Virus record (IMG/VR): IMGVR_UViG_3300010340_001122
Length of the DNA stretch: 64,000 nucleotides
Origin: a virus
Lineage: Duplodnaviria; Caudoviricetes
Strand: one strand, 5' to 3'
Below the pieces are notes generated by a model. The model had not been told where the DNA came from. It saw nothing but the letters and a program-made list of their open reading frames with translations, and ran no database searches. The translations under genes were made by a program, and so were the position numbers. This document shows, in pieces, positions 49,600 through 64,000 of this stretch (its first letter is position 1; the number at the start of each line of letters is the position of its first letter).

Positions 49600-50070
49600 T
49601 TATTTATTAATTTTTGTAAGTGTGATAGTGTTATTTCCATAATTAGTCATTTTAAAATCTGGTATTGGATTATTTGTCAGATATCTTAAATACATTTTTG
49701 TTCTTTGTGTTATATATGATTTTTCGTTTTCTTTTGCCAACCCTTCAAAAGTAAGCTTATTACAGATAAATGATTTTCTTTTTAAGAAGTCATTCATTAT
49801 AACACCTAGAACGGTTGAAACAATTTTCCAAGGATTTGATTCTATTAATTTCGAAACTGACCAGTTTTTCATATCATTATCCCAGACAAAATAAGACATT
49901 GTATATTCTTTACTTAATATATTTTTACCTATTGGTACATTTTTGAATTGTACCAAAAACTTATTATCCAAATCATCTTTGAATTTATACTCAATTTTTA
50001 AATCTTTATTTGATAATATTTCAAAATCATATGATTCATTAAAAAGTTTATAGTTATTTACGTATTTCAT
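49600..50070 (-). CDS. Hypothetical protein, paralog of 17487..18023
   Basis: MKYV..YKLFNES; NPWKIVSTV, QR.KMYLRYL. Confidence 0.7.
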   Translation of the reverse strand: MKYVNNYKLFNESYDFEILSNKDLKIEYKFKDDLDNKFLVQFKNVPIGKNILSKEYTMSYFVWDNDMKNWSVSKLIESNPWKIVSTVLGVIMNDFLKRKSFICNKLTFEGLAKENEKSYITQRTKMYLRYLTNNPIPDFKMTNYGNNTITLTKINK

Positions 50071-50138
50071 TGTATTATATATTAAAAAGTGATTTTAGAA
50101 TATAATATATACAAGTATAAAAAAATTATAAATGATAT

Positions 50139-50543
50139 ATGAAATACCTAAAAACTTTTGAATCTTTTGAAGAGTCGTTTGAATTGAATGAAGGAATTTT
50201 AGACTCTGATGTATATAAGTTCTTATCTGATAAGGATAATAAAGAAAAAATTATGTCAATTAATGTTCCGACATATATTAAACAAGCTTTGAATTCAAAG
50301 AAATATAAAAATTCTGAAACTGGTAAAATGATAGATCTTTCAGATTTAACAGAACAGGATTATAGAAAAGCAATTGAATTAGGTGAAGCTAATAAGTGGG
50401 GAAATCCACACGCTATGTTAGGAGCTCCAAAATTTTTCAAAGCTTTTGATGAGAAAACAAAAAAATCTTATGAGTATATTTATCAAAGAATTGGAATGGC
50501 TATCCAAGGTAAAGCACCTCATGGTTTTGGATCAGGATCTTAA
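50139..50543 (+). CDS. Hypothetical protein, MKYLKTFESF family
   Basis: N-terminal motif, LNEG, Gly-rich C-terminus. Confidence 0.7.
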   Translation: MKYLKTFESFEESFELNEGILDSDVYKFLSDKDNKEKIMSINVPTYIKQALNSKKYKNSETGKMIDLSDLTEQDYRKAIELGEANKWGNPHAMLGAPKFFKAFDEKTKKSYEYIYQRIGMAIQGKAPHGFGSGS

Positions 50544-50600
50544 ATTATTTTGATATATAAAAATAATTTTATATATTTAGAAGCATAAAATATATAGAAA

Positions 50601-51023
50601 ATGCTACCAAGAAATAGACGACTCGATAATACAATAGGTTTGGTTGTTTTTAAATTTGAGATGATTGCTAAAGACTGTAATATTCAACAAAGAGAATTTC
50701 AATCTTGGGGATTAACACCAACCGAAGGTAAAAGACATATAGTATTTTTAACTGAAACACCTCAGAAAGTTAATGAATTTATTTCAAAATTAATTTCTGA
50801 TGGTGTTTCTTTTTCTTATAATGATATCACAAAATCAGTTATTAAAATGATTGATGTTGATCCTCTTTTGTATAGAGCCTATAGATATAACTCTATTTTT
50901 AGATGGTGTATTAATCAGATTAGATTAGAAAATTTAAACACTGATGATATTTTGGATAAAATTAACCAATATGGTGAAAAATCACTAGATGATATTGATT
51001 TAATGATTTTAAAAAATTCCTAA
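50601..51023 (+). CDS. Hypothetical protein with C-terminal DDILDKI..G motif
   Basis: DDILDKINQYGEKSLDDID..IL. Confidence 0.65.
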   Translation: MLPRNRRLDNTIGLVVFKFEMIAKDCNIQQREFQSWGLTPTEGKRHIVFLTETPQKVNEFISKLISDGVSFSYNDITKSVIKMIDVDPLLYRAYRYNSIFRWCINQIRLENLNTDDILDKINQYGEKSLDDIDLMILKNS

Positions 51024-51067
51024 ATTGGTATTTTTTCCTTATATTTGTAAAACAAACGACAAAAGAC

Positions 51068-51484
51068 ATGACTAAGTTTTATAAATATATTTGGTGCTTA
51101 CCAGCTCTTGTTCTACACGAACTATCACATATTTTAGTTGCGTTAATATTATTAGGTCGCCTTAAAAAAGTACATGTTAAAAGACTTGATTCTATTAGAT
51201 TGTATATTTCTAATCTAAATACACTATTCCAAGTTAGATTAGTAGCATTTTCACCAATCTTAGTTCCTTTCGTATTTTCTTTACTTTCTTTTAAAAATAC
51301 TGATTTCGTTTGGGGTTTAGTTTATTTACTATCGACTATTAGAACAACACTTCCAAGTTTAGTTGACTTTAAAACAGCGCAAATTAAAGCTCCAGATTTT
51401 ATCAAATCTCTTTATAAAGAAACTAATGAAGATGATTTTGAATTTCCAAATGAAGATGAGATTTCAGTAGACTCTACACTTTAA
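51068..51484 (+). CDS. Putative membrane zinc metallopeptidase
   Basis: LHELSH (HExxH) in hydrophobic context; PS..D. Confidence 0.65.
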   Translation: MTKFYKYIWCLPALVLHELSHILVALILLGRLKKVHVKRLDSIRLYISNLNTLFQVRLVAFSPILVPFVFSLLSFKNTDFVWGLVYLLSTIRTTLPSLVDFKTAQIKAPDFIKSLYKETNEDDFEFPNEDEISVDSTL

Positions 51485-51487
51485 ACC

Positions 51488-52159
51488 CTATCTAGTATAG
51501 GGTTTAAAATTTAACCCTGTTAATACTTCAATTTCAGTCATATTGACTTTACATTGACCAAGTCCTTTAGGTTTTTCTGATTTATTATCAAATACAAAAG
51601 CATAGTAAGTTTTTGTTTTCACTATATAGATAACTTTCCAACATTTTAAAGGTATTGTAAGCCCATTTGACTTCTCATTTATACCAATTGATCCACACCA
51701 AACATAGACAGAATCATTTTCTATGCTTAGTTCCCTTGTCATTATTTCTAGTTTTTTCCAATCTCCAGCATTCAATGAGTGATATTGAGGCGCCATATTT
51801 GAAAAATAGAAACATTCTTCTAATAAAGTTTGATCACATTGATTATCAGCAGCTGGACACATATGTCCTCTATCAATTCCTGGAATCCCTTTTTCTTTGT
51901 GGTTTTTGTTTATTAACTCATATTCATCTTTTAAATCAGTTTGACTCTTTAAAAGTGGATCGGGTTTGAACTTATTTTTTCTAGGAATTTTGTCTAAACA
52001 CTCTAGTCTATTTTTAGTTTCAATCCATTTTACCATTACTGGATAATCAAGTATTGTATCATATATAGATGTATATCCTGTGTGAATTAGAGTTACACAA
52101 TTCTTCTGAGCCAATAATATAGTTGGAAATAGTAGTATTAATAGTAGTATTTTACTCAT
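51488..52159 (-). CDS. Secreted DNA/RNA non-specific endonuclease (NucA/EndoG-like)
   Basis: DRGHMCPAAD, SNMAPQ...LN.G.W..LE; signal peptide from ATG 52159. Confidence 0.92.
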   Translation of the reverse strand: MSKILLLILLFPTILLAQKNCVTLIHTGYTSIYDTILDYPVMVKWIETKNRLECLDKIPRKNKFKPDPLLKSQTDLKDEYELINKNHKEKGIPGIDRGHMCPAADNQCDQTLLEECFYFSNMAPQYHSLNAGDWKKLEIMTRELSIENDSVYVWCGSIGINEKSNGLTIPLKCWKVIYIVKTKTYYAFVFDNKSEKPKGLGQCKVNMTEIEVLTGLNFKPYTR

Positions 52160-52598
52160 TTTTAAAATCTGGATGCTTTTCTCCATATATATCTCGATTA
52201 ATCATTTCAAATTTAAAGTCTGTTAAAAAGTCAATTTCTTTTTTTAAAATTTTCCAAGTTCTTTCGACTCGACCATTACCATTTGATGGTAAGTGTGGAT
52301 TCTTACTTGAATCATATCTTATGGTGAGATTAAACCCTTGTTCATTTAAATATACTCTTATTCTTTTTATATAGTTTTCTAAATATTTAGATGTTACATT
52401 AGTTATATTAATAGATGGATATTTATCACCTTCCTTATATAATTTATCATATTTAGCATAAGGTGGCCACCATTGATATGATACTCTACAATCTATATCA
52501 TCTTTTAAATCATTCATTATGTCAACAATATCTAGCTGAATTTCTCTAGGTATTATCTCGTCTTTCCAATTTTCAAACTTCATTAAATGTCTTAACAT
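52152..52598 (-). CDS. Hypothetical protein, RHL.KFENW family
   Basis: N-terminal motif; DI.DI..DL.D; RI..YL..QGF. Confidence 0.7.
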   Translation of the reverse strand: MLRHLMKFENWKDEIIPREIQLDIVDIMNDLKDDIDCRVSYQWWPPYAKYDKLYKEGDKYPSINITNVTSKYLENYIKRIRVYLNEQGFNLTIRYDSSKNPHLPSNGNGRVERTWKILKKEIDFLTDFKFEMINRDIYGEKHPDFKNE

Positions 52599-52667
52599 AA
52601 TCTATATATAAAAAAAAATTGTAAAAAATCAAAACAAAGGAGTATATTTGTAATATATAATAAATAT

Positions 52668-52739
52668 TGCGGGGTAGAGCAGAGGCAGCTCGTTAGGCTC
52701 ATAACCTAAAGGTCGGTGGTTCGATTCCACCCCCCGCTA
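52668..52739 (+). tRNA. tRNA-Met(CAT), initiator-like
   Basis: TTAGG-CTCATAA-CCTAA anticodon arm, GGTTCGATTCC, unpaired 1:72 (T/T). Confidence 0.92.
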
Positions 52740-52746
52740 CAAAACT

Positions 52747-52774
52747 AAAACCACTAACAATAGTGGTTTTTTTT
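52747..52774 (+). terminator. Intrinsic terminator after tRNA-Met
   Basis: AAAACCACTA-ACAA-TAGTGGTTTTTTTT. Confidence 0.88.
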
Positions 52775-52821
52775 ATTTTCATTTATTATATAGGGAGTGA
52801 AACGGAATTTATATATACCTT

Positions 52822-53529
52822 ATGAATAGTAAAAGAAGATTGAATAAGATATTGATATATGCAAAAAAAATTAAAGCTATCAATATACTTGGTGGTAAAT
52901 GTAAATCTTGTGGTGAGAGTGATATGATCAAATTATGTTTCCATCATACTGATATGTCTGATAAAGAATTTGAAATATCAAAGATAAAATATAATAGATG
53001 GTCTCTTTGGGAAAAGGAAATAAAAAAATGTGAGTTGTTGTGTAACAATTGTCACGTAGAATTTCATCTAAATAATGAGATAACATATAGAAAGTTGAAT
53101 AAAAGTATATTCCTTGAATATAAAAAAATGTTCCATTGTGAAATTTGTGGATATGATAAGTGTCAACAAGCTTTACAATTTCATCATCTTAATGATAAGA
53201 GTTTTGAAATGAGGGGGATTCAGAAGAAATTTAAAAAATTATCTGATGTAGATTCTAATATTCTATTGGAAATAGATAAGTGTAGTGTTATATGTAATAA
53301 CTGCCATGTTTCAATACATTCGGATACACTTTTTTTTCATAATAATAAAGATGAAATTATGAAAAGAGTACATAATCTTAGAGAAAATTCAAGAAAAATC
53401 GATAAAAGTAATGTAATATCAATGTACAAGGATGGTCTTTCTGTTAAAGAAATTATGGACGAGATTGGTTGTAAGAAATCTGCGATCTATGACATTTTAA
53501 GTAAAATGAAAAAAAATTTACCACTTTGA
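52822..53529 (+). CDS. Tandem HNH-like zinc-binding endonuclease with C-terminal HTH
   Basis: Two C..CG....L.FHH....KC...C.NCH..H units. Confidence 0.8.
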   Translation: MNSKRRLNKILIYAKKIKAINILGGKCKSCGESDMIKLCFHHTDMSDKEFEISKIKYNRWSLWEKEIKKCELLCNNCHVEFHLNNEITYRKLNKSIFLEYKKMFHCEICGYDKCQQALQFHHLNDKSFEMRGIQKKFKKLSDVDSNILLEIDKCSVICNNCHVSIHSDTLFFHNNKDEIMKRVHNLRENSRKIDKSNVISMYKDGLSVKEIMDEIGCKKSAIYDILSKMKKNLPL

Positions 53530-53579
53530 ATATTGTATAATTTTTGTATATTTGTGATTGAAACTTTAAACTAAATTTT

Positions 53580-53771
53580 ATGAAAAAAATCAAAATTGTG
53601 ATGATGGCACTAATGATGTGCTCAGTATTTACTTCTTGTTCAAAAGAAGACGACGAAATAAGTAAAAAGTGTAATTGTGGCACTATTGCAAATGATGGTA
53701 TAGATACAAATCCAGATGGTTCTTCTTGTTATTGGTTAAGCACAACATTAGTGCCATTATCAAGATTTTAA
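53580..53771 (+). pseudogene. Cys-rich lipoprotein gene truncated by inversion (90 aa when segment is flipped)
   Basis: Lipobox FTSC; natural continuation is on the minus strand of 53739..53896. Confidence 0.8.
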
Positions 53772-53896
53772 TTGTTTTCATATTACCAACCTGCTTGATT
53801 TGTTACACAAAAATTACTACCTACATGATTATTAATCCAAACATCTTGGTCAAAACAGAATTTCTTTTTATTACCCGAACATTCAGATCTAATCTC
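53739..53896 (-). other. 158-bp inverted segment bounded by GTTA/TAAC
   Basis: Reverse complement supplies the in-frame 3' end of the upstream gene and the signal-peptide start of the downstream gene. Confidence 0.9.
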
Positions 53897-54375
53897 TAAC
53901 AAGTTTATCTTTTGGACAAAATAGCATAGAACATTGTAAGGATGTTATGACTGATAAAGAGTATGCTTTTTTTAAGAAAAATTTATTATGTAGTGATGAT
54001 AATAAAAAGGGATTTGTAATAAGTTTAAACTTAAATGTGAATAATTCTATTGCAGAATACGAAGGTTTTACAATTAAATCAGTTGGAATTGGTGGTTGTG
54101 TGGAAAATAGCAATGTTATCTTTTTATTTGAAGATACAACCAAATTTAGCCTAACTAGTTGGAATAAATTTAATTGTGATGGTAAATCATATTTCGATCT
54201 TAGAGGTGGGACATTTGATGAATTCTCGAATAAAAGAATTAAAGCTATTAGATTTACTAATGGTAGAACACATGATTCATACACCTATATTCTAAAAGAA
54301 AAAGAACGAGAATATTTTATTGAATGTAGAAAATTGCTACTATCAAAAGTTTATGTTGAAACTAAGTGTGAATAA
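53897..54375 (+). pseudogene. Secreted protein gene lacking its start because of the inversion (173 aa when flipped)
   Basis: TSLSFGQ in frame upstream of ATG 53947; missing MKTIKILIMALMLC lies on the minus strand. Confidence 0.8.
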
Positions 54376-54393
54376 AACTAAACTAAATTTTAT

Positions 54394-54882
54394 ATGAAAA
54401 CAATCAAAATTTTGATGATGGCACTAATGATGTGCTTAACAAGTTTATCTTTTGGACAATCGACAGGTGATAGTTCTCATTTGAGGATAAATGAAATTTG
54501 TCAAAGTTGTATTATAAGATCTGAGGATTCATTTATATCTGATTCACTTATTACTTTGAAAACTAATGATTATGTTGAATTTATAGATGTTGCGAAATAT
54601 CCTTATATTAAGGTTAGAAAGGACAATATTATTGGATTTTTAAGTGTTGCTTATGTTAATAATAATATTCATCCGCAGTTTTCTAAAGAAGTTGAAAAAA
54701 ATCATTTAGAATCACAAAAAAGTATAAGAGAAAATAGAGAGAGAAATCCAGATAGTTATTTCAGACACGTAACTTCTGATGGTGATGTTTATGAAATAAA
54801 AACTTGGTACAATGGTAATAGATATACTACAAAGACTTTTATCAATGGTAAGTTAGATAGTGAGTCAAATGGATACTTTTAA
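54394..54882 (+). CDS. Secreted protein, SH3-like segment
   Basis: Signal peptide MKTIKILMMALMMCLTSLSFGQ; YIKV.....IGFLS..YV. Confidence 0.7.
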   Translation: MKTIKILMMALMMCLTSLSFGQSTGDSSHLRINEICQSCIIRSEDSFISDSLITLKTNDYVEFIDVAKYPYIKVRKDNIIGFLSVAYVNNNIHPQFSKEVEKNHLESQKSIRENRERNPDSYFRHVTSDGDVYEIKTWYNGNRYTTKTFINGKLDSESNGYF

Positions 54883-54933
54883 AAAGGAGAGAAAACTTTT
54901 TTAATATATAATAATATAATTTTTACAAAAATA

Positions 54934-54964
54934 TTTGGAGATTTAAAAAATCTTCGTATATTTG
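54934..54964 (+). promoter_or_regulatory. Bacteroidota-type -33/-7 promoter for leader 1 / tRNA array 1
   Basis: TTTG-N19-TATATTTG. Confidence 0.8.
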
Positions 54965-55003
54965 TAAAACAAAACAAAACAAAACAATTTAAAAATAGAA
55001 ATC

Positions 55004-55084
55004 ATGGCAACTTTTGAAACATATTATTATGAAGCGTATGAGGAACACTCAGCGACTGGCAATACTATGTTCGTGAAAAGTTGA
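55004..55084 (+). CDS. Leader peptide 1 (Tyr/Glu-rich) MATFETYYYEAYEEHSATGNTMFVKS
   Basis: 26 codons, 4 TAT + 3 GAA + 1 GAG within codons 5-14; A-rich 5' UTR; followed by terminator. Confidence 0.85.
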   Translation: MATFETYYYEAYEEHSATGNTMFVKS

Positions 55085-55112
55085 TATAGAATATTAACTA
55101 AAAACGCAAAGT

Positions 55113-55148
55113 AACCCAGTCATTCAATAAAAAATGACTGGGTTTTTT
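55113..55148 (+). terminator. Attenuator terminator 1
   Basis: AACCCAGTCATT-N8-AATGACTGGGTTTTTT; 5' arm can alternatively pair with GACTGG 55054..55059. Confidence 0.9.
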
Positions 55149-55161
55149 GTTTTAAATATAT

Positions 55162-55253
55162 TGGGGTATAACGGCAGGGCCACGTAAAGGCCTGACAGAG
55201 TAAAATAAGCCGTATGGATTACCTGTGAGGGGGTTCGATTCCTTCTACCTCAA
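55162..55253 (+). ncRNA. Non-canonical tRNA-like RNA, GTA (Tyr) anticodon, no D arm, long variable arm
   Basis: TGGGGTA/TACCTCA acceptor, GGGCC-ACGTAAA-GGCCT, GGGGG-TTCGATT-CCTTC. Confidence 0.7.
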
Positions 55254-55261
55254 CTAAATAT

Positions 55262-55333
55262 GGTCCCATCATCTAATGGTTAGGATACAAGACTTTCAAT
55301 CTTGAAATGCGGGTTCGATCCCCGTTGGGACTA
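55262..55333 (+). tRNA. tRNA-Glu(TTC)
   Basis: CAAGA-CTTTCAA-TCTTG; full cloverleaf. Confidence 0.92.
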
Positions 55334-55344
55334 CAAAAATATAT

Positions 55345-55428
55345 GGGAGAGTAACCGGTAATTGGTAGCCGCGCGGACTGTAAATCCGCTCTCATTTGAG
55401 ACTGGGGGTTCGAGTCCCTCCTCTCCCA
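55345..55428 (+). tRNA. tRNA-Tyr(GTA)
   Basis: GCGGA-CTGTAAA-TCCGC; long variable arm. Confidence 0.92.
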
Positions 55429-55434
55429 CAAAAT

Positions 55435-55508
55435 GCTCTTGTCGTCTAACGGTAGGACTCCGGTTTTTCAAACCGATGTAGATGCGGGTTCGATTCCCGT
55501 CAAGAGTA
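55435..55508 (+). tRNA. tRNA-Glu(TTC)
   Basis: CGGT-TTTTCAA-ACCG; GCTCTTG/CAAGAGT acceptor. Confidence 0.85.
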
Positions 55509-55513
55509 CAAAT

Positions 55514-55574
55514 GGGATATGTCGTCACAAGGGGTCTGTAAAACCCCTCAGAGGTTCGATTCCTTCATATCCCA
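55514..55574 (+). ncRNA. D-armless 61-nt tRNA-like RNA, GTA (Tyr) anticodon
   Basis: GGGATATG/CATATCCC, AGGGGT-CTGTAAA-ACCCCT, GAGG-TTCGATT-CCTT. Confidence 0.7.
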
Positions 55575-55580
55575 CAAAAT

Positions 55581-55624
55581 GGTCCGCCACGGAGAAGACA
55601 CGGGTTCGAATCCCGTACGGACTA
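55581..55624 (+). ncRNA. Acceptor + T-arm minihelix (tRNA-Glu-like remnant)
   Basis: GGTCCG/CGGACT, ACGGG-TTCGAAT-CCCGT; no D or anticodon arm. Confidence 0.6.
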
Positions 55625-55631
55625 CAAATAT

Positions 55632-55705
55632 GGCCCTGTCGTCTACGATGGCTAGGACATCACCCTCTCAAGGTGAAGAAGGCGGATCGACACCGCTCAG
55701 GGCTA
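55632..55705 (+). tRNA. tRNA-Glu(CTC)
   Basis: TCACC-CTCTCAA-GGTGA; atypical T loop ATCGACA. Confidence 0.88.
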
Positions 55706-55716
55706 CAAATAACTAT

Positions 55717-55802
55717 TGGAAGGTGGCAGAGTGGTTAAATGCGCTTGACTGTAAATCAAGTCTCTTCGGAGTACGGGGGTTCGAATCCCTCCCTTCCAAC
55801 CA
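55717..55802 (+). tRNA. tRNA-Tyr(GTA), CCA encoded
   Basis: CTTGA-CTGTAAA-TCAAG; variable arm CTC-TTCG-GAG; ends ACCA. Confidence 0.95.
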
Positions 55803-55821
55803 ACCAAAATAACGATTGATT

Positions 55822-56895
55822 ATGAAAGGTCTTCAAAGATTTCCAAATATATTCACACTACCAAATAGAAAACTTAGAATTAAATTTGGAATAGATCCAA
55901 CATCTGATAAATTACATTTAGGTCATTTAATTCCTTTACAGATTGTAAAAGAATTTAAAGATAGAGGTGACCAAATTGATATTGTAATTGGTACATTTAC
56001 TGCTCAACTTGGTGATCCAAGTGGTAAAAACTCAATGAGACCAATACTTTCTTTCAATCAAACCCTAAAAAACTCAGAGTCTGTAATTGAACAAATTAAA
56101 AGAATCTTAGGAAATGATGTCAATATACATCTTAATCATACATGGTTTGAGAACATGTCAATGATAGAGATGATGAATTTAATGTCAAAATTTACTGTTG
56201 GTAATTTACTTAATAGAGATTCTTTTCAAAATAGAATTAAGGAATCTAATCCTATTGGGATGCATGAATTAATGGTTCCAATTTTACAAGGACTTGATTC
56301 TGTATTTCTTAAATCCGATGTTGAGATTGGTGGTTCAGATCAACTTTTTAATTTCAAAATTAGCCGTGAACTTCAAGTTATTTCTGGTCAAGAACCAGAG
56401 AATTGCTTGTTAGCTCCTATTATTAATGGCACCGATGGGAGAAAAATGTCTAAAACATTTAATAATTGTATATTTATCAACGATACTCCTCAAGATGTTT
56501 TTGGTAAGTGTATGTCTATTTCAGATGATACAATGGAAGAATGGTCTCAAATATTTTTAATTGATTCAACCATTACACATCCGATGCTTAAAAAGAAAAA
56601 ATTGGCACATAAAATTACACATTTAATTTGGGGAGAGGATTTGGCAAATAGTGCCATGAATCATTTTGAGACTGTTATTCAAGGTCGAAATATTCCAGAT
56701 GAAATGCCTGAAACCAATGATAGAAATCTAATTAATGTTGTTAAAATACTAAGAAATACTTCTATTAACCAAAGTAGGAGACTTCTTGAGTCAAATGCTG
56801 TAAAAGTTAACGGTGAAGTTGTTAATAGTAATATTGAGTTATCAATTGGTGATGTTGTGAAAGTTGGCAAAAAAGATTTTGTAAAGATTGTTTAG
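55822..56895 (+). CDS. tyrS: Tyrosyl-tRNA synthetase
   Basis: KFGIDPT..LHLGH, GDPSG, LQG.D, GGSDQ.FN, KMSKT, C-terminal S4 domain. Confidence 0.93.
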   Translation: MKGLQRFPNIFTLPNRKLRIKFGIDPTSDKLHLGHLIPLQIVKEFKDRGDQIDIVIGTFTAQLGDPSGKNSMRPILSFNQTLKNSESVIEQIKRILGNDVNIHLNHTWFENMSMIEMMNLMSKFTVGNLLNRDSFQNRIKESNPIGMHELMVPILQGLDSVFLKSDVEIGGSDQLFNFKISRELQVISGQEPENCLLAPIINGTDGRKMSKTFNNCIFINDTPQDVFGKCMSISDDTMEEWSQIFLIDSTITHPMLKKKKLAHKITHLIWGEDLANSAMNHFETVIQGRNIPDEMPETNDRNLINVVKILRNTSINQSRRLLESNAVKVNGEVVNSNIELSIGDVVKVGKKDFVKIV

Positions 56896-56937
56896 TATGT
56901 GAATTTTTCATATATTAGCCGAGTATTAAATGTCCTT

Positions 56938-57294
56938 ATGATAACAGTAATAGATAGAAATATATTAAATCAATTAAACGAATCAGGTATTGTGCTTGTC
57001 AATACTGACGATATTGATGGTCTTCTAATGGGGAAAGAGTTAATGTCATCGTCTCCTGATCCAAATGAATCTAAATTAGTTCCAACGGTTTTATATTCTT
57101 TATATCTAACATTTAAAGAGATTGATAAGGTTTTTATTAACTCAGTTAAAATTTCGGATAAAGACATTAAATTCGTTCATACAGATAAAAATAATTTAGT
57201 AATAAGAAATATTGATTTTTGTGATGATATTGTAATAGATTATGATACAAAACAAGATATGAGAGAAAAAAAACTAAACAAATTCATAAAATGA
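56938..57294 (+). CDS. Hypothetical protein with C-terminal REKKLNKF motif
   Basis: ATG 56938; C-terminal motif family. Confidence 0.6.
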   Translation: MITVIDRNILNQLNESGIVLVNTDDIDGLLMGKELMSSSPDPNESKLVPTVLYSLYLTFKEIDKVFINSVKISDKDIKFVHTDKNNLVIRNIDFCDDIVIDYDTKQDMREKKLNKFIK

Positions 57295-57555
57295 CGACAA
57301 AAGAAAAAGCGATTCAAATTTTAGATAGATTTATTCAATTAAATGGAAATTCTTTCTTTGCTAAAGAATGTTCTATTTTTAGTTGATGAAATATTAAAAC
57401 AATTTGATGGTTTGCATAAACCTGAATATTGCGCTTTTGATGCGATAGGTGAGAGAAAATTTACATTTGAAAGTGAATATCCTAATTATATGACAGGATA
57501 TGATATGATTGAATATTGGAAACAAGTGAAAATTGAAATTGATAAAATTCTTTAA
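57291..57555 (+). pseudogene. Frameshifted MT.KEKA...AK.C...VDEIL...YW.QVK.EI-type phage protein
   Basis: MTTKEKA..AKECSI in one frame and LVDEIL..YWKQVKIEI in another; shift in T-run 57376..57380. Confidence 0.65.
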
Positions 57556-57563
57556 AAAAATTA

Positions 57564-57595
57564 TTAGGAAGATAAAACTTTTTTATATATATTTG
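57564..57595 (+). promoter_or_regulatory. Bacteroidota-type promoter for leader 2 / tRNA array 2
   Basis: TTAG-N20-TATATTTG. Confidence 0.7.
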
Positions 57596-57617
57596 TATAA
57601 CATAAAACAGAAATAAA

Positions 57618-57695
57618 ATGAAAGCAGTTAATAACATATCAATCATAGGGAACGGCGCGATAGCGGGCGGTAGACCCATTATGCTGATTGGTTAA
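57618..57695 (+). CDS. Leader peptide 2 (Ile/Gly/Ala-rich) MKAVNNISIIGNGAIAGGRPIMLIG
   Basis: 25 codons; 3 ATA, 5 Gly, 3 Ala; A-rich 5' UTR; followed by terminator. Confidence 0.85.
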   Translation: MKAVNNISIIGNGAIAGGRPIMLIG

Positions 57696-57722
57696 GTATT
57701 AACTCTTTCATAAAGAATACTT

Positions 57723-57756
57723 AAAAACCCAGTCAGTAAATTGACTGGGTTTTTTT
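57723..57756 (+). terminator. Attenuator terminator 2
   Basis: AAAAACCCAGTCAG-TAAA-TTGACTGGGTTTTTTT; 5' arm alternatively pairs with CTGATTGG 57684..57691. Confidence 0.9.
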
Positions 57757-57760
57757 ATTT

Positions 57761-57841
57761 CGGCAGGTACCGTTGGTGTCTTATACACACTATACACGTA
57801 GCGGGAAGTTGAAAACGTGGGTTCGAATCCCACTCTGCCGA
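57761..57841 (+). ncRNA. Non-canonical tRNA-like RNA, TAT (Ile AUA) anticodon, no D arm, long variable region
   Basis: CGGCAGG/TCTGCCG, GGTGT-CTTATAC-ACACT, GTGGG-TTCGAAT-CCCAC. Confidence 0.75.
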
Positions 57842-57843
57842 CA

Positions 57844-57917
57844 AACTCAAACTTGTGTTAACTCTTTGAGAGTGAAGTTGTGTACACAACAGGTTAATTC
57901 CCATAAGTCCCTGAGTT
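57844..57917 (+). ncRNA. Unidentified structured RNA inside tRNA array 2
   Basis: AACTCA/TGAGTT, ACTTGTG/CATAAGT, TTAAC/GTTAA stacked stems with two apical hairpins. Confidence 0.5.
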
Positions 57918-57920
57918 ACT

Positions 57921-57994
57921 GCAGAAGTGGTGTTTAATGGTTAGCATGTGAGACTTCCACTCTCAAGGTGCCGGTTCGAATCCGGTCTTCTGCT
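57921..57994 (+). tRNA. tRNA-Gly(TCC)
   Basis: TGAGA-CTTCCAC-TCTCA; U73. Confidence 0.93.
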
Positions 57995-58000
57995 CAATAA

Positions 58001-58072
58001 GCGGGTATCGTATAACGGTTATTACTCTAGCCTTCCAAGCCTGAGATCTCGGTTCGATTCCGGGTGCCCGCT
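58001..58072 (+). tRNA. tRNA-Gly(TCC), mismatched anticodon stem
   Basis: GCGGGTA/TGCCCGC, loop CTTCCAA, U73. Confidence 0.82.
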
Positions 58073-58121
58073 CAAAAAGATGGAAAACTTTTAAAACCCA
58101 TCCCACCAGGATGTAAAAATC

Positions 58122-58194
58122 GCGAAAGTAGCTCAGCTGGTAGAGCTTCTCCTTGCCAAGGAGAAGGCCGCGGGTTCAAGTCCCGTCTTTCGCT
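58122..58194 (+). tRNA. tRNA-Gly(GCC)
   Basis: TCTCC-TTGCCAA-GGAGA; canonical D and T arms; U73. Confidence 0.95.
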
Positions 58195-58200
58195 CTAAAT

Positions 58201-58238
58201 GCAGGATGATCCACCGTTGTATCACGGTGCCTGCTCCA
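58201..58238 (+). ncRNA. Gly-like minihelix ending in TCCA
   Basis: GCAGG/CCTGC-T-CCA with CACCGT/ACGGTG hairpin. Confidence 0.55.
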
Positions 58239-58311
58239 GGGGGATTAGTTTTAATGGCTAAAACACTTGTCTGGCTGACAAGATTTATCGGTTCGAATCC
58301 GGTATCCTCCA
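58239..58311 (+). tRNA. tRNA-Ala(GGC)
   Basis: CTTGT-CTGGCTG-ACAAG; G3:U70 pair; A73. Confidence 0.88.
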
Positions 58312-58317
58312 CAACAT

Positions 58318-58392
58318 GGGGGTGCATGTACTGAGGCTAAGCGAAAAGCACTTGCAATGCTTTTGATGTGATTTCGACTATCACCATCTCCA
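58318..58392 (+). tRNA. tRNA-Ala(TGC)
   Basis: AAGCA-CTTGCAA-TGCTT; G3:U70; T arm GTGAT-TTCGACT-ATCAC. Confidence 0.85.
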
Positions 58393-58447
58393 CGAGTTCG
58401 ATAGAGAAACTCTCCACTTTAATATATATTTAAAAAGTAATATTAAA

Positions 58448-59254
58448 ATGAAGTGTAAAAATATTGAGTGTCAAAATGAAACTACTGGTAAGAGGATTTA
58501 TTGCTCTCTTTCTTGTAGAAATATATTTGTTAATAAGTATCTAAGAAGTTATGATAAAGTTTCTGATACTTTTCAACAAAAGAAAAAAGAAAGAGAAGAA
58601 AAATATTTAGAAAATCCAAAAAAATGTCTTCACTGCGAAGGTATAATACCATATGATTCTAGAGAGAATAATTATTGTAACCATTCTTGTCATTCGAAAT
58701 CAACAAATGGTGATAGAGAATATACATGGGGTGATAAGATAAGTGAGGGTGTGAAAAAATATATTGAAGTAAATGGATACTTTGGAGCATTAAAATCAAA
58801 TTCAGGTAGACCTAAAGGTTTTGTGGAAAAAATATGTCCAAACTGTGAAAAAACTTTCAATAAAAAAACTAAATATTGTAATGATCCTTGTCGTAGAGAA
58901 TTTGAAAGAAAAAACATGGACGAATACCAAAAGTACAAATTAGATGCTAATTTCAAATTCAATCTTAAAGATTATTCAGATGAATTTGACTTTTCTTTGG
59001 TTAAAGAACATGGATGGTATTCACCGACAAATAAAAATAATAATTTAGATGGTGTGAGTAGAGATCATATGTTTTCAGTCAGAGAAGGATTTGAAAAAGG
59101 AATTGATCCAAAAATAATTTCACATCCGGCTAATTGTAGATTAATGATTCATAATGAGAATATAAGTAAAAATAAAAAATCTGTTATAACGATTGAAGAG
59201 TTGTTAGATAGAATAGAAAAATTTGAACAAAAATATAAAAATATAAAGATATAG
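58448..59254 (+). CDS. HNH homing endonuclease with Cys-rich repeats
   Basis: Three C..C....YC...C units; SRDHMFSV...HPANC.LM.H.EN..K. Confidence 0.85.
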   Translation: MKCKNIECQNETTGKRIYCSLSCRNIFVNKYLRSYDKVSDTFQQKKKEREEKYLENPKKCLHCEGIIPYDSRENNYCNHSCHSKSTNGDREYTWGDKISEGVKKYIEVNGYFGALKSNSGRPKGFVEKICPNCEKTFNKKTKYCNDPCRREFERKNMDEYQKYKLDANFKFNLKDYSDEFDFSLVKEHGWYSPTNKNNNLDGVSRDHMFSVREGFEKGIDPKIISHPANCRLMIHNENISKNKKSVITIEELLDRIEKFEQKYKNIKI

Positions 59255-59750
59255 GAGGAACCCAGGCTGTGGACGCATTAAACTAAAACTCGAAAAAATT
59301 GAGAGCCGTAAAAAAGAAATCGGTTCCAAACACCATAGAAAACTTAAAAAGTATTCTAATAATTTCAATAAGATATTCTATTTCTTTTTAGAATCATATC
59401 GAAAAGATATACTTACTTTCTGTGGTTCTAATGTAGAAGTTTTATATGATCCAAATGGTCCAGATGCTAAAGAAGGCTTTAGACTCTATGATGATGGACA
59501 TTTCAAATTAAAGCCTATTATATCCAGACAACCAAATGTTTTAAAATCAATTATAATATCTAAAAAATCTTGGGGATTATGGGTTCAAGAATGGACAGAT
59601 GGAATTGTAGATTGGACTTTCACTAAAGAAGAAATACTCAGTCAGTTTGATGGTATTGAGATACCTGAATCTTTCTTAAATGATTTTGAAAATGTTTTAA
59701 ATAGGAAAAAATCTATTAGAAACGAAAACTACTTTAAAAGCTTACAATAG
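59247..59750 (+). CDS. Open frame of about 160 aa without ATG/GTG/TTG start (GRIKLKLEKIE...KSLQ)
   Basis: Stop-free from 59247 to TAG 59750 with normal codon usage; missed by ORF track. Confidence 0.6.
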   Translation, partial: RYRRNPGCGRIKLKLEKIESRKKEIGSKHHRKLKKYSNNFNKIFYFFLESYRKDILTFCGSNVEVLYDPNGPDAKEGFRLYDDGHFKLKPIISRQPNVLKSIIISKKSWGLWVQEWTDGIVDWTFTKEEILSQFDGIEIPESFLNDFENVLNRKKSIRNENYFKSLQ

Positions 59751-59751
59751 A

Positions 59752-60180
59752 TTATATTTTACCTTGTATTATTATTCTTTTTTCACCACCTAAATTATTA
59801 TATGAAAATAATAAATCAAGTCCTATCTCATCTTGTATTCTTTTTATAGCAATTACAAAATCAATAAATTCTTCTGATGATAGGTTCGTGTCGTTAGTGG
59901 TTTTTTTAGTTTTCCATGAAATCTCACCATTAGAATCTATAGAACCGGTAAATTCAAATTTCTTATAATCATAAGGATCATAATAAATGTGTTCTTCTTT
60001 TTTCATAATATATTTGAAGTGAGGTAATGGATAATAAGAAAAACCTGTATGTTCATCAGAAGCTTTTGACCAATACCAATTATTATCTTTAAATTCTAAA
60101 AAACAGTCTTTTATGGAATCAAAAACTTGATTATAAATTTGTTCTTCCATTGACTCATTAAATTTTTTAAGATATTTCAT
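59752..60180 (-). CDS. Hypothetical protein, MKYLKKFNES family
   Basis: N-terminal motif; IKDCFLEF.D. Confidence 0.7.
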   Translation of the reverse strand: MKYLKKFNESMEEQIYNQVFDSIKDCFLEFKDNNWYWSKASDEHTGFSYYPLPHFKYIMKKEEHIYYDPYDYKKFEFTGSIDSNGEISWKTKKTTNDTNLSSEEFIDFVIAIKRIQDEIGLDLLFSYNNLGGEKRIIIQGKI

Positions 60181-60213
60181 ATAGTATTTACAATTGTATT
60201 ATACTAAAGTATC

Positions 60214-61062
60214 TTAAAGATTTACAATAGATTTGTCTTTAAGATTATAGATTTTTACTGGATTTGCTTCAGCTACCCAATCGACTTTATAATGGTTTAG
60301 TTTAGACCAGTCGTTAATTCTGTTTTTAACTTGAACTGTTTTATATTCATTTGAGGTAGGTGAAAATATGATTATATCGGTGCCAAATATCATATCTAAA
60401 AAGTCGCCATTACCACCAGAGTAAGCAATTGATAATCCTTTAGATTGTAGAAAAGCACTTACTCGATCTTCTGCCTCTTCACCAATTTTAGACATTCTTA
60501 TTGAATAATTTGTGAATTTTTTAAAATCATCTAATCCTTTCCCTTTTTCGATAAAGTAATGTATAATTAATCTTTTCAGATGTGTTTTTATAGATAGTAA
60601 TCCTCTTGTAGGATTTTCCATAATTGAATCATAAACAATTTTACCTTTTTCGTAGTTATCACATCCTCTTTTTATTAATTCAACTAAAAGCTCGGATAGA
60701 TCAGAATAATTGGTATTTAACTTATTAACATGATGCCATTCGCCGTTCTCATCTAAAACTAATTTTTTATTATTTATACCATTTGGTAATTTATTTAAAA
60801 TCTGTGAGTTGATATATTCAATTGGCATTGAAGTTTTTTTTAATAACTCTATGCCATGATTAAATTTATCAATTTGTTTTTGGTTAAGTTTAGTTTCATA
60901 ATTATATTCTTTAAATATATCATCAATAATTGTCATCATTCCAAGACCATTTGATTTAAATATCCATGATTGTAATGGTTCTATTTTTCTAAAAAGAGCT
61001 TTAAAATTTAGAGGATCATTTGAATCAAATATTGATAATTGTGACTCTGTGAATTTTTTCAT
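60214..61062 (-). CDS. Protein with C-terminal PD-(D/E)XK-like nuclease motif
   Basis: GE.AE, D...GTD, TVQVK; start re-called at ATG 61062 after TAATATATA. Confidence 0.6.
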   Translation of the reverse strand: MKKFTESQLSIFDSNDPLNFKALFRKIEPLQSWIFKSNGLGMMTIIDDIFKEYNYETKLNQKQIDKFNHGIELLKKTSMPIEYINSQILNKLPNGINNKKLVLDENGEWHHVNKLNTNYSDLSELLVELIKRGCDNYEKGKIVYDSIMENPTRGLLSIKTHLKRLIIHYFIEKGKGLDDFKKFTNYSIRMSKIGEEAEDRVSAFLQSKGLSIAYSGGNGDFLDMIFGTDIIIFSPTSNEYKTVQVKNRINDWSKLNHYKVDWVAEANPVKIYNLKDKSIVNL

Positions 61063-61094
61063 AGTGTATATATTATTTAATAGATTTGTAATAT

Positions 61095-61985
61095 TTACCA
61101 CCAAGATTCTACAGTTTCATTGTTTGTATTCATTTTAAAATAAATATAAAATTCTCTAGAATTTTCTTTATTTGGTGAATATTTTATTTCAGTTGAAAAT
61201 CCTTCAGAATTAAGATAAGATTTTATTTGTTTTATGGCTGGTTCAACTTCTTCTAAAACAGGTTTATATCTAGAAAAAGCATTAGGACCTTTTATTTTAC
61301 CAGAAATCCAAATATAAGGATCATCTTGTATCCAAGAAATTTGATATGTGTATCTCCATTCTTCTTCAATACTACTTTTTATTATATCGTTAATATATTC
61401 CTCAATCTCTTTCCTAATTGAACTTTCAGGTCGGCACCAGTCGTATTTATATGGAATGTTACTCTCATTGATTTCATCATCCTTCTCATAGAATTCTATA
61501 ATAATGAAGTCACCTTTAAATCCAAAATTTAAAAATTCTGGATATTCCGTAGATAGAACTATACCATCATCCTCAGTTGATTTTGTTTTTCCTTGAAAGC
61601 CGATTTCTCTTTTTATCCATTTTTTAAATTCTTCTAAGTTTTCTAAATCTATTGTGTTTTGACGCACATACTGATCGCTATCACATATAATTACTTTATA
61701 ATCATAATCCTCCATATATTTTACAATTTCTTCAAGATATTGAATTAGTGTCTCATTTATTCTACCACCTCTATCATTAATATCTTCTCCGTCCTCGTCA
61801 AATTCATCTAATGGTTCAAGAATAACTTTACAAGAATATTTATCTTCATTATATTTTTCAGTGTTTGTGTGAATAGTTATACTCCATTCACCTTCATCTT
61901 GTAAATCTAAAGATAAGTCTTTGAGATGTTCAGAATCTTCATCTACATTATATTCAAATGATTCAAATCTTTTTAAGTATTTCAT
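61095..61985 (-). CDS. Hypothetical protein, MKYLKRFESF family (two modules)
   Basis: N-terminal motif, internal INES, LKDL.LDLQD. Confidence 0.7.
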   Translation of the reverse strand: MKYLKRFESFEYNVDEDSEHLKDLSLDLQDEGEWSITIHTNTEKYNEDKYSCKVILEPLDEFDEDGEDINDRGGRINETLIQYLEEIVKYMEDYDYKVIICDSDQYVRQNTIDLENLEEFKKWIKREIGFQGKTKSTEDDGIVLSTEYPEFLNFGFKGDFIIIEFYEKDDEINESNIPYKYDWCRPESSIRKEIEEYINDIIKSSIEEEWRYTYQISWIQDDPYIWISGKIKGPNAFSRYKPVLEEVEPAIKQIKSYLNSEGFSTEIKYSPNKENSREFYIYFKMNTNNETVESWW

Positions 61986-62698
61986 AAAGGATCTTGAATC
62001 TGTTCACCATTTTTATCTAATAGTTTAAACTCTTTAGGTCTAAAATAATTATTAGTGTATATTATTTCTCCTTTATCATTTTTCAATCTAATATCACCAC
62101 CAGATCCAGAATATTTATCAATCAGACCTTTATATTCCTGATCATCTATTCTAAATTCAGCAAATACTTCACCATTTTTAATTCTATCTTTAAATAGTTT
62201 TTTTCTGTATATTACTTCTGGATCTTTTAGATATTTTAACTTTTGTTCTTGATCCTTTATCTTTTTATCTTGTATAGTTGTTAATTCAGATAATAGTATT
62301 GTATATTTTCCAGTTTTTTCATCAAATTTACCAATTGAATAGTGTGTATTGTTTTTAACTGGTTCAATTGTTTGACAGTGTAATTTAGGTCCTCTATTTG
62401 TTACAAAGTTCCAATGATCAGATACTCTATATGACTTGTCTGGCTTAGACTCCCAAGATATATCATCTGATGAGTAAAATGATTTAGAGTAAGGTGACTT
62501 GTATATAGTTTCCCATTCTTTCATCATTTCTATTATTGAATCTGGAATTCCAAATTGTGATAGTTCTTCAGGCTGATATATTTTACCTGTTGGATTAGGA
62601 TTATTTTTATGCCAAAGTTCATTTCTAAGTTGTCTTTTACTTTTAACAGCTTCTTCTTCACCACTTTCAAAATCTTCAAATAGTTTTAAATATCTCAT
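61982..62698 (-). CDS. Hypothetical protein with SPYS.SFY / RVSDHWNF motifs
   Basis: MRYLKLFEDF start. Confidence 0.7.
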   Translation of the reverse strand: MRYLKLFEDFESGEEEAVKSKRQLRNELWHKNNPNPTGKIYQPEELSQFGIPDSIIEMMKEWETIYKSPYSKSFYSSDDISWESKPDKSYRVSDHWNFVTNRGPKLHCQTIEPVKNNTHYSIGKFDEKTGKYTILLSELTTIQDKKIKDQEQKLKYLKDPEVIYRKKLFKDRIKNGEVFAEFRIDDQEYKGLIDKYSGSGGDIRLKNDKGEIIYTNNYFRPKEFKLLDKNGEQIQDPL

Positions 62699-63162
62699 AA
62701 TTTATATTTTATATTTATTTGTATTAAATTTCCTAAATCTGATTTACGTTTTAGAAGTTTTAGAAAATATTCAAAACTATAATTTATAGCATCATTTGGT
62801 TTTGATATATGTAACCATATATCAGATATTTCACCATCAACTGACTCTATATAACTTTTAGATGTTAGTATTTGTTCTATTATCTCATTTATTTTAAAAG
62901 TAGATTGTTTAAACTTTGACCAATCATCTGATCCGTCTGTTTTTTTGAATTCTGGAGATTTTTTAATTAGGTTTACACCTATAGTATATCTATAAGAATT
63001 ATGTAATTTTATATGAAAATCCTCAGATAGATCTGAAAAAATATCTTTTAAATATTCAGATATTTCTTTAAGTTCTTCCTCATTATATTTACTATTTTCA
63101 CGAGGAATCATTTTATTTTTCTCATAATCATCATACATTTCAAATATTTTTAAATATTTCAT
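62695..63162 (-). CDS. Hypothetical protein, MKYLKIFE family
   Basis: N-terminal motif; LKDIFSDL; TAATATATA upstream. Confidence 0.7.
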   Translation of the reverse strand: MKYLKIFEMYDDYEKNKMIPRENSKYNEEELKEISEYLKDIFSDLSEDFHIKLHNSYRYTIGVNLIKKSPEFKKTDGSDDWSKFKQSTFKINEIIEQILTSKSYIESVDGEISDIWLHISKPNDAINYSFEYFLKLLKRKSDLGNLIQINIKYKL

Positions 63163-63199
63163 GTTTTATATATTAAAAAAATTAATTATATTTGTAGTT

Positions 63200-63544
63200 A
63201 TGATATATGAATTTTTTACAGATAAAACAAGTGGTGTACTTACTAATTATCTAAGTGATTTCTCAAATATACCTTTAAAGATGATTGAATATAAAATATT
63301 AGATCATCTTGAGTCACCAATACCTGAGCATGATGTTAAGAGATTTACTTTTGGTTATGATGATGAATCGTTTCATTTGTACATAACAAAAAATGATTCA
63401 ATTGTTTTGAAACCTACCCTTAGAAGTAGAATTATTTCGAAAATATTTATAAATTTTAAACAATATGATAGTGAAATAAATAAAACTGTCCGTGACTATT
63501 TATTGTCTTTATTAAGAGACTACAAGTTAAATCAAATAATTTAA
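63200..63544 (+). CDS. Hypothetical protein with C-terminal RDYKLNQII motif
   Basis: ATG 63200 after TATATTTG (63187). Confidence 0.65.
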   Translation: MIYEFFTDKTSGVLTNYLSDFSNIPLKMIEYKILDHLESPIPEHDVKRFTFGYDDESFHLYITKNDSIVLKPTLRSRIISKIFINFKQYDSEINKTVRDYLLSLLRDYKLNQII

Positions 63545-63549
63545 AAATC

Positions 63550-63804
63550 ATGAATGAAGATATTCAATACCGTATAAAAGAAGTCCGAGGATTTTTTAGA
63601 ATTCAAATTTATGCTTATGAAGAAGTAGGTATTTTATGCAAAAGAAAAGAATGGAAATGGGAATATACAAATGCTTGGGGTGGTGTTTGGGAAATATTTC
63701 CGGTTCCACAACCATTTAGTAAAACTTTTTCTTCATTAGAAGCAGCACAGGATCAAGTAAAAAAATGGAGAGGTAAATCTATTTCTATTTATCATCCTGT
63801 TTAA
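63550..63804 (+). CDS. Small hypothetical protein
   Basis: 84-aa ORF. Confidence 0.6.
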   Translation: MNEDIQYRIKEVRGFFRIQIYAYEEVGILCKRKEWKWEYTNAWGGVWEIFPVPQPFSKTFSSLEAAQDQVKKWRGKSISIYHPV

Positions 63805-63811
63805 TAATAAA

Positions 63812-63843
63812 TTTGGAAGATTAAACTTTAATACATATATTTG
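63812..63843 (+). promoter_or_regulatory. Bacteroidota-type -33/-7 promoter
   Basis: TTTG-N20-TATATTTG. Confidence 0.65.
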
Positions 63844-64000
63844 TAAAATAATAATAACATATCATTTTTCTTTGATCAAAAGGTGGAGAAAAAATTTTCA
63901 AAGAAATTTGAAAAAAAAGAAAAAAGATATGAAAAAAGGAAAAGATTTATTAGGGGAACGAATTAATTTTATATATAAAATCTATGATACTCTATGACAT

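Follow-up and report, generated by a model that had tools for sequence, protein, structure and literature searches.

Why should a phage place a short open reading frame (ORF) and an intrinsic terminator in front of transfer RNA (tRNA) genes that are sorted by amino acid? The question is raised by a locus in a 64,000-nucleotide (nt) stretch of DNA, hereafter the window, from a virus of the Caudoviricetes (IMG/VR record IMGVR_UViG_3300010340_001122). An initial annotation of this sequence had described the same architecture twice, namely a promoter, an A-rich untranslated region, an ORF of 25 or 26 codons, a terminator and, 5–14 nt further on, a tRNA array, and all of these elements were found in place (Table 1). 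Unit 1 is concerned with Tyr and Glu and ends in tyrS, and unit 2 is concerned with Ile, Gly and Ala. We propose, with a probability of roughly 85%, that each unit is a ribosome-mediated (leader-peptide) transcription attenuator for tRNA genes, which would put tRNA supply under feedback control; the proposal is built on sequence comparison and folding models. Because the leader codons match the downstream tRNAs and the terminator appears switchable, each set of tRNAs, together with tyrosyl-tRNA synthetase (TyrRS) in unit 1, is probably made only when the cognate codons are read slowly.

The proposed mechanism would run as follows. Transcription would start at a promoter 30–50 nt upstream of the short ORF and give an A-rich leader that lacks a Shine-Dalgarno sequence and would nevertheless be translated. 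In the middle of the ORF stands a run of codons for the amino acids of the downstream tRNAs, Tyr/Glu in unit 1 and Ile/Gly/Ala in unit 2, and the 3′ third of the ORF contains region 2, which is predicted to pair either with region 1 in the 5′ part of the ORF or with region 3, the 5′ arm of the terminator. When a cognate charged tRNA is scarce, the leading ribosome would stall on the control codons and leave region 2 free, the 2:3 helix would form and the terminator would be prevented. RNA polymerase, presumably coupled to this ribosome, would then enter the tRNA array and, in unit 1, continue into tyrS. With fast decoding, the ribosome would move onto region 2 and the stop codon, and the 3:4 hairpin with its U-tract would end transcription 5–14 nt before the first tRNA. 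The expected outcome in vivo is negative feedback, in which each amino-acid-sorted block of tRNAs would be made on demand.

The leader of each unit in the window matches the array behind it. In leader 1, Tyr and Glu occupy eight of the ten positions in codons 5–14, and codons cognate to the array make up 8 of 25, compared with 12.5% expected. Array 1 contains Tyr and Glu anticodons only and is followed by the synthetase gene, just as the initial annotation had it; the product of this gene is identified as TyrRS because it combines a class I Tyr/Trp synthetase domain with a C-terminal S4 domain. Leader 2 has six Ile codons (three of them ATA), six Gly and three Ala, together 15 of its 25 codons, and with Ile left out the cognate codons amount to 8 of 24, compared with 8% expected. 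The Ile/Gly/Ala identity claimed for array 2 held good for the Gly and Ala tRNAs. Its Ile(TAT) member can only be called tRNA-like, being recognised neither by ARAGORN at default settings nor by the Rfam tRNA model; the TAT loop and the stems of this element are kept through compensatory changes in four phages.

Does the concordance extend beyond the window? The closest public DNA belongs to unannotated genomes of uncultured phages of 634–735 kilobases (kb). Homologues of both units are present in the 634-kb relative (LR745206.1); their leader sequences have diverged but retain the Tyr/Glu and Ile/Gly/Ala runs, and the tRNAs behind them are of the same kinds. When viral contigs were scanned twice with the terminator motif, so that units were selected on the terminator only, about 30 non-redundant units emerged; in these, a short ORF ends 22–38 nt upstream of the terminator and tRNA genes then follow. 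At least seven classes of leader can be distinguished, and in every class the codons of the leader follow the identity of the array. A run of five Gln codons precedes three tRNA-Gln genes, and a Lys/Tyr-rich leader precedes an array in the order Lys, Tyr, Lys, Tyr, Lys. Another leader, with Thr, Tyr, Gly, Lys, Gln and Pro codons, is followed by tRNAs for Pro, Gln, Tyr, Thr, Gly and Lys, and one rich in Asn, Ile, Cys, Asp, Tyr, Glu and Met is followed by tRNAs for Asp, Tyr, Cys, Met, Ile, Asn and Glu. In two contigs, one fused Tyr-Glu-Ile-Gly-Ala array lies behind a leader that holds the union of the Tyr/Glu and Ile/Gly/Ala codons. When leaders and arrays were permuted with one representative for each of seven classes, the true pairing was the best of 5,040.

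A test that is independent of the terminator gave the same picture. We located 61 tRNA matches in the 634-kb genome and read the sequence upstream of every large array; each of these arrays is headed by a leader unit, mostly with other terminator sequences. A leader containing His, Lys, Phe and Trp codons heads a His, Phe, Trp, Lys array, a Ser/Arg leader heads an Arg, Ser, Ser, Ser array, and a leader with Asn, Leu, Thr, Met, Val, Ile and Arg codons heads an array of those seven kinds. Further examples are a Pro/Gln/Asp leader before Pro and Asp tRNAs, and a Gln leader before three tRNA-Gln genes. Within this genome, the true pairing of seven units was again the best of 5,040. At the level of codons, 262 of the 765 leader codons in the 30 viral-contig units can be read by the array of the same unit, compared with 118 expected from phage codon usage. 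The comparison of leader codons and anticodons against shuffled pairings, which had been set in advance as a check, thus came out strongly in favour of concordance.

The way in which the leaders vary is informative as well. The composition of the control runs is conserved, and their order and synonymous codons vary, for example GAG versus GAA between the window and the related locus L132; the Tyr/Glu run of leader 1 is likewise kept in relatives with altered order and synonymous changes. Conserved composition with changing order and synonyms fits codon sensing, and fits neither a functional peptide nor a fixed RNA motif. The leaders also show a strong preference for codons seldom used in the phage genes. 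GCG accounts for 35 of 48 Ala codons in the leaders versus 32 of 504 in the genes, and GGC plus GGG for 39 of 66 Gly codons versus 66 of 819; ATA is favoured too, to a lesser extent. This preference could tune the sensitivity of the leaders, if such wobble-read codons are slow, or it could meet the G+C needs of the RNA helices.

How might the decoding of the leader be passed on to the terminator? The part of the leader that forms the best duplex with the terminator 5′ arm is, in nearly every unit, located in the last third of the ORF, with predicted energies of −8 to −16 kcal/mol. Region 2 of unit 1 gives a duplex of −12.3 kcal/mol (p = 0.03 against dinucleotide shuffles), and the region 2 duplexes combined over seven classes give p = 1.5e-4 against such shuffles. 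These duplex tests are alignment-free and replace a column-based covariation analysis on a MAFFT alignment of 13 units of the Ile/Gly/Ala type, which was dropped as the loop-proximal terminator base and region 2 of the window fell in inconsistent columns. The complementarity also co-varies between units. In a swap test in which four bases on each side of the constant core were variable, leaders paired with their own terminator arm at −12.6 kcal/mol and with the arms of other units at −10.1 kcal/mol, and none of 20,000 permutations did as well (p about 5e-5). Out of 30 arms, leader 2 of the window paired best with its own.

To model the effect of a ribosome, partition functions were calculated for the nascent transcript, cut off where the terminator 5′ arm ends, and a footprint of 28 nt was masked at one codon after another. 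In unit 2, upstream pairing of the terminator core has a predicted probability of 0.03 without a ribosome, because regions 1 and 2 pair; the probability is 0.85 with the A site on codons 1–13, and 0.03–0.04 from codon 15 to the stop codon. The corresponding values for unit 1 are 0.85–0.86 up to codon 13 and 0.35–0.63 beyond. Over 30 units, the early-minus-late contrast has a mean of 0.41, versus 0.00 for shuffled leaders, and is positive in 29 of the 30. The models thus predict an antiterminator (2:3) that is exclusive of the terminator and would be covered by a terminating ribosome; the case for it is modest for unit 2 alone, and strong in aggregate and in the swap test. The trp/his/ilv-type attenuation suggested by the initial annotation gains support in this way, from the co-variation of region 2 with its own terminator arm and from a predicted switch that depends on the position of the stall.

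Several observations speak against the attenuator reading. Taken by itself, region 2 of unit 2 is not significant against dinucleotide shuffles (p = 0.25). In the truncated-transcript model, unit 1 already prefers the antiterminator when no ribosome is present (0.85); because of this, the 1:2 helix (anti-antiterminator), which is predicted clearly for unit 2, is seen for unit 1 in the full-length minimum-energy fold only and is absent from the truncated-transcript ensemble. The register of this helix is moreover not conserved across classes, and it is the least secure element of the model. A ribosome halted on the last control codons is predicted to cover region 2, and read-through should therefore be induced by the first part of the run only. 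The match is also incomplete, in that certain leader residues lack a corresponding tRNA and certain arrays include tRNAs for which the leader has no codons, for instance in the related loci L128 and L106. Finally, the units have a common ancestry, and unit-level p-values therefore overstate their independence, which makes the class-level and within-genome tests the safer ones.

These observations have to be weighed together with other explanations of the same anatomy. The leader RNA might sense tRNA directly, as a T-box-like or other riboswitch with an ORF of no consequence; tRNA, charged or uncharged, would then bind the codon-rich segment and tip the balance between terminator and antiterminator with no ribosome involved. 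In favour of this reading, both leaders of the window have a high degree of structure (z = −6.0 and −7.4 compared with shuffles), and the terminator/antiterminator alternative exists whatever reads the codons. We nevertheless regard direct sensing as very improbable. A search of positions 50000–64000 with cmscan (E ≤ 1) found neither the T-box family RF00230, with its stem I, specifier loop and T-box sequence, nor any other cis-regulatory Rfam family, and the curated Rfam leader families (His, Trp, Thr, Leu, Phe and similar) gave no match in the Rfam scans. An ATG-to-stop frame of 15–38 codons is present in all of about 37 units, despite the frequent stops of AT-rich DNA; the control runs comprise 5–15 codons that specify as many as seven amino acids, and both their order and their synonymous codons vary, which fits in-frame reading and not a single specifier. 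Region 2 lies at the end of the ORF, where a terminating ribosome would sit. If the leader is translated and does sense decoding speed, the output might still be something other than termination, such as processing or stability of the precursor through access of RNase P or RNase E, or Rho loading, or the short transcript might itself be a small RNA or encode a micropeptide. A small-RNA gene would indeed have the same make-up, with a promoter, a structured RNA of about 150 nt and a terminator, and RNase P must cut beside the hairpin because the 5′ end of the first tRNA is only 4–14 nt away from it. We consider this family of explanations improbable, given that the hairpins of both units are canonical intrinsic terminators (stems of 12–14 base pairs with five G–C pairs, followed by 6–7 U), that the co-varying complementarity between region 2 and the terminator 5′ arm is what control of termination predicts, and that the composition of the peptide is conserved and its sequence is not.

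It might also be argued that the arrangement is a coincidence, or operon punctuation, in which arrays expressed constitutively, by leak-through or from other promoters, happen to lie behind a small ORF unrelated to them and a terminator that belongs to an upstream transcript. Terminator 2 would in fact also end the transcripts of unit 1 and tyrS, and the terminator core is common in many phages and bacteria. The two separate permutation tests described above, however, exclude chance, the same logic recurs with unrelated terminator sequences, and each leader is separated from the upstream gene by a promoter motif. In addition, the terminator motif alone is no predictor of tRNA arrays: when genomes of bacteria and archaea were scanned with it, no leader and tRNA-array unit turned up among the 120 bacterial loci listed, a result that is silent on host attenuators with other terminators. 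We find coincidence hardly credible. Nor is there space for a separate promoter downstream of the terminator, which the initial annotation had named as an observation that would speak against attenuation: the distance from the terminator to the first tRNA is 4–17 nt across units, with about 9–14 nt from the T-run to the first tRNA-like element in unit 1 and 4–5 nt in unit 2.

The terminators of the two units share a core, as had been noticed before; it occurs exactly twice in the window and in none of 100 shuffles. On the promoter side, TTTG and TAnnTTTG form the promoter motif of Bacteroides, and in 17 of 30 units TAnnTTTG is found 25–80 nt ahead of the leader ATG, compared with 5.5% expected. 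A second motif (GGAGAGAAAAC, a T-run, AATATATA, and TATAAT about 14 nt on) precedes both window units and many units of the Ile/Gly/Ala type, with its only exact copy in the window at 54891, and may be a unit-specific or phage-specific promoter beside the Bacteroidota-type one. A scan with the sigma-70 consensus was uninformative in this AT-rich DNA (56 sites versus 45 expected). The promoter motif and the leaders devoid of Shine-Dalgarno sequences fit a probable host of Bacteroidota type. The window also offers an internal contrast, a tRNA-Met(cat) gene at 52668–52740 with TAnnTTTG 18 nt upstream, no leader ORF and its own terminator at 52747–52770, and the solo tRNAs of the 634-kb relative are built in the same way. 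This tRNA-Met gene, which adjoins the putatively attenuated arrays, has an initiator-like mismatch at its first pair; in several relatives, a tRNA-Met gene lies directly upstream of the leader.

Table 1. Features of the two units in the window, in order of position
Unit	Feature	Position	Strand	Basis or remark
1	Upstream motif (GGAGAGAAAAC-T-run-AATATATA...TATAAT), candidate second, phage-type promoter	54884-54925	+	Exact match at 54891-54910
1	Bacteroidota-type promoter-like motif: TTTG (54934-54937), 19 nt, TAnnTTTG (54957-54964)	54934-54964	+	Sequence read
1	Leader ORF 1, 26 codons + TGA	55004-55084	+	ORF call; A-rich untranslated region precedes ATG
1	Control codons of leader 1 (codons 5-14), motif ETYYYEAYEE	55016-55045	+	
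1	Region 2 (putative antiterminator strand); partner 55109-55122	55053-55067	+	Predicted duplex
1	Intrinsic terminator 1 (regions 3 and 4) with U-tract; stem 55113-55144	55107-55150	+	12 paired bases, then T-run
1	Non-canonical Tyr(GTA)-like tRNA-like gene, first element past terminator 1	55162-55256	+	Kept in six phages; co-varying long-range stem
1	tRNA-Glu(ttc)	55262-55334	+	ARAGORN, Rfam
1	tRNA-Tyr(gta)	55345-55429	+	ARAGORN, Rfam
1	tRNA-Glu(ttc)	55435-55509	+	ARAGORN, Rfam
1	Short Tyr(gta)-like tRNA without D arm	55511-55574	+	ARAGORN at relaxed threshold; weak Rfam clan match
1	Truncated tRNA-Glu-like remnant, acceptor and T arm only	55581-55630	+	By eye; called by no tool
1	tRNA-Glu(ctc)	55632-55706	+	ARAGORN, Rfam
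1	tRNA-Tyr(gta)	55717-55802	+	ARAGORN, Rfam
1	tyrS, tyrosyl-tRNA synthetase (357 amino acids), begins 20 nt past last tRNA-Tyr	55822-56895	+	Pfam tRNA-synt_1b, E = 1.2e-53, and C-terminal S4 domain
2	Promoter region: upstream motif overlapping TAnnTTTG (57588-57595)	57572-57595	+	
2	Leader ORF 2, 25 codons + TAA	57618-57695	+	ORF call
2	Control codons of leader 2, motif ISIIGNGAIAGG	57636-57671	+	
2	Region 2, adjoining the stop codon; partner CCAGTCAG of terminator 5′ arm	57684-57692	+	Predicted duplex
2	Intrinsic terminator 2 with U-tract; stem 57723-57754	57723-57756	+	
2	Non-canonical tRNA-like gene of Ile(TAT) type; D arm missing, anticodon arm extended	57761-57841	+	Conserved TAT loop and stems
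2	tRNA-Gly(tcc)	57921-57995	+	ARAGORN, Rfam
2	tRNA-Gly(tcc)	58001-58073	+	ARAGORN, Rfam
2	tRNA-Gly(gcc)	58122-58195	+	ARAGORN, Rfam
2	tRNA-Ala(ggc)	58239-58312	+	ARAGORN, Rfam
2	tRNA-Ala(tgc), weak	58318-58393	+	Rfam 24.8 bits, under cut-off of 29; ARAGORN at relaxed threshold

The first element past each terminator is unusual. Acceptor and T arms are present and the D arm is missing, and the TAT or GTA loop is enclosed by an extended anticodon arm or by a long-range stem. In relatives, a canonical tRNA-Ile(tat) or tRNA-Tyr gene occupies the position of the non-canonical element of the window, and non-canonical elements are also found in L036, L031, L077, L137, L037, L125 and L128. Transfer-messenger RNA was considered for two of the odd tRNA-like elements and rejected, as the Rfam scores (17.8 and 12.5 bits) are far under the cut-off and the length is only about 80–95 nt. 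The truncated Glu-like remnant of array 1, about 50 nt long and placed between two array members, lacks D and anticodon arms and so resembles an acceptor/T-arm minihelix. In the Gly array of unit 2, the spacer at 58074–58121 (...GAAAAC..TTAAAACC.ATC.CACCAGGATGTAAAA...) is not a tRNA and is conserved in the 634-kb relative (L001, 3746–3790); it may serve as a signal for processing or encode a small RNA. Upstream of unit 2, two short ORFs, 57291–57386 (ending in a TGA TGA doublet) and 57343–57555, overlap in different frames and may represent one gene with a frameshift or a recoded stop; ORF 57343–57555, the one of the pair that was scanned, has no Pfam match.

How do these units compare with known systems? 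Among the enterobacterial attenuators, the ilvGMEDA leader senses Ile, Leu and Val and the thr leader Thr and Ile, trpL, hisL, pheL and leuL belong to single-amino-acid attenuators, and the leu leader prefers rarely used codons. The units described here are similar in their short leader rich in control codons, their region 2 with two partners, their intrinsic terminator and their induction by stalling, translation and induction being predictions in the present case. With the multivalent leaders they share the sensing of several amino acids per leader, and they too favour rare codons, here GCG, GGC, GGG and ATA. The enterobacterial attenuators control biosynthetic enzymes, whereas here tRNA genes would be regulated, the non-coding products of which would relieve the stall themselves. 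The present units are also phage-encoded, partition the tRNA repertoire of a genome by amino acid as a set, and fall outside the Rfam leader families.

Two further comparisons concern the translation machinery. In the pheST operon of E. coli with its leader pheM, an aminoacyl-tRNA synthetase operon is subject to leader-peptide attenuation, and unit 1 is alike in placing tyrS behind Tyr control codons; it differs in that the synthetase gene follows eight tRNA or tRNA-like genes in one predicted transcript and in that the leader is bivalent (Tyr and Glu). T-box riboswitches have the same goal, to sense the state of a specific tRNA and to switch between terminator and antiterminator before genes that restore charged tRNA. 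They do so without a ribosome or an ORF, through one specifier codon and a conserved T-box sequence, none of which was found here.

The tRNA clusters of phages such as T4, T5 and the huge phages, which are not known to be regulated, resemble the present arrays as large phage-encoded sets of tRNAs accompanied by synthetases. The survey of Al-Shayeb et al. 2020 (PMC7162821) gives tRNA and synthetase counts, with up to 67 tRNAs per genome, and predicts Bacteroidetes hosts for genomes of the 634–735-kb class; the terms “attenuat” and “leader” occur nowhere in that paper, and no regulatory logic is given for the arrays. No description of attenuated tRNA arrays or of genome-wide multivalent leader sets was found in the literature searched, which left out most subscription journals, in line with the initial annotation, which knew of no described case. 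Attenuation itself is thus a known mechanism, and its use for phage tRNA arrays appears to be new, in that we could not find it published.

What would make the cognate tRNAs scarce during infection? Candidate triggers are a mismatch between the AT-rich codon usage of the phage and the tRNA pool of the host, host shut-off, amino-acid starvation and a tRNA-cleaving defence, the last being an attractive candidate that is unsupported here. A side observation may be mentioned in this connection. At 343656–346681 of LR745206.1 (L002), and also in L021 and L105, the same terminator core follows a leader of 14–15 codons with the conserved motif LHTYKI.ID, and this sister unit, which does not occur in the window, heads protein genes and not tRNAs: a small Lys-rich ORF, a HisRS-like fragment (PF13393) and an RNA ligase (PF09414). 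It may be an attenuator for functions in tRNA charging and repair, and it hints at a wider regulon. One could imagine that the whole set of attenuators serves as a counter-defence sensor, which would read, for each codon family, whether host tRNAs are lacking or are being degraded by tRNA-depleting immunity such as anticodon nucleases, and would answer with the matching replacement tRNAs, the cognate synthetase and, through the sister unit of the 634-kb relative, RNA ligase, the first, non-canonical Tyr- and Ile-like tRNAs being nuclease-resistant or decoys. We hold this extension to be possible and rather doubtful.

The tRNA genes of phages are usually seen as constitutive cargo that offsets codon usage or the loss of host tRNAs. 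In the present case, each block of tRNA genes appears to be under the control of what it provides, namely decoding speed at its own codons. If this is true, attenuation would extend to non-coding RNA products, and the leaders would give a direct read-out of which tRNAs limit translation during infection, as well as compact, portable and codon-specific sensors for synthetic biology. It would also predict coupled transcription and translation in the Bacteroidota-type hosts that these phages infect, and it would provide a reason why the tRNA arrays of huge phages are sorted by amino acid.

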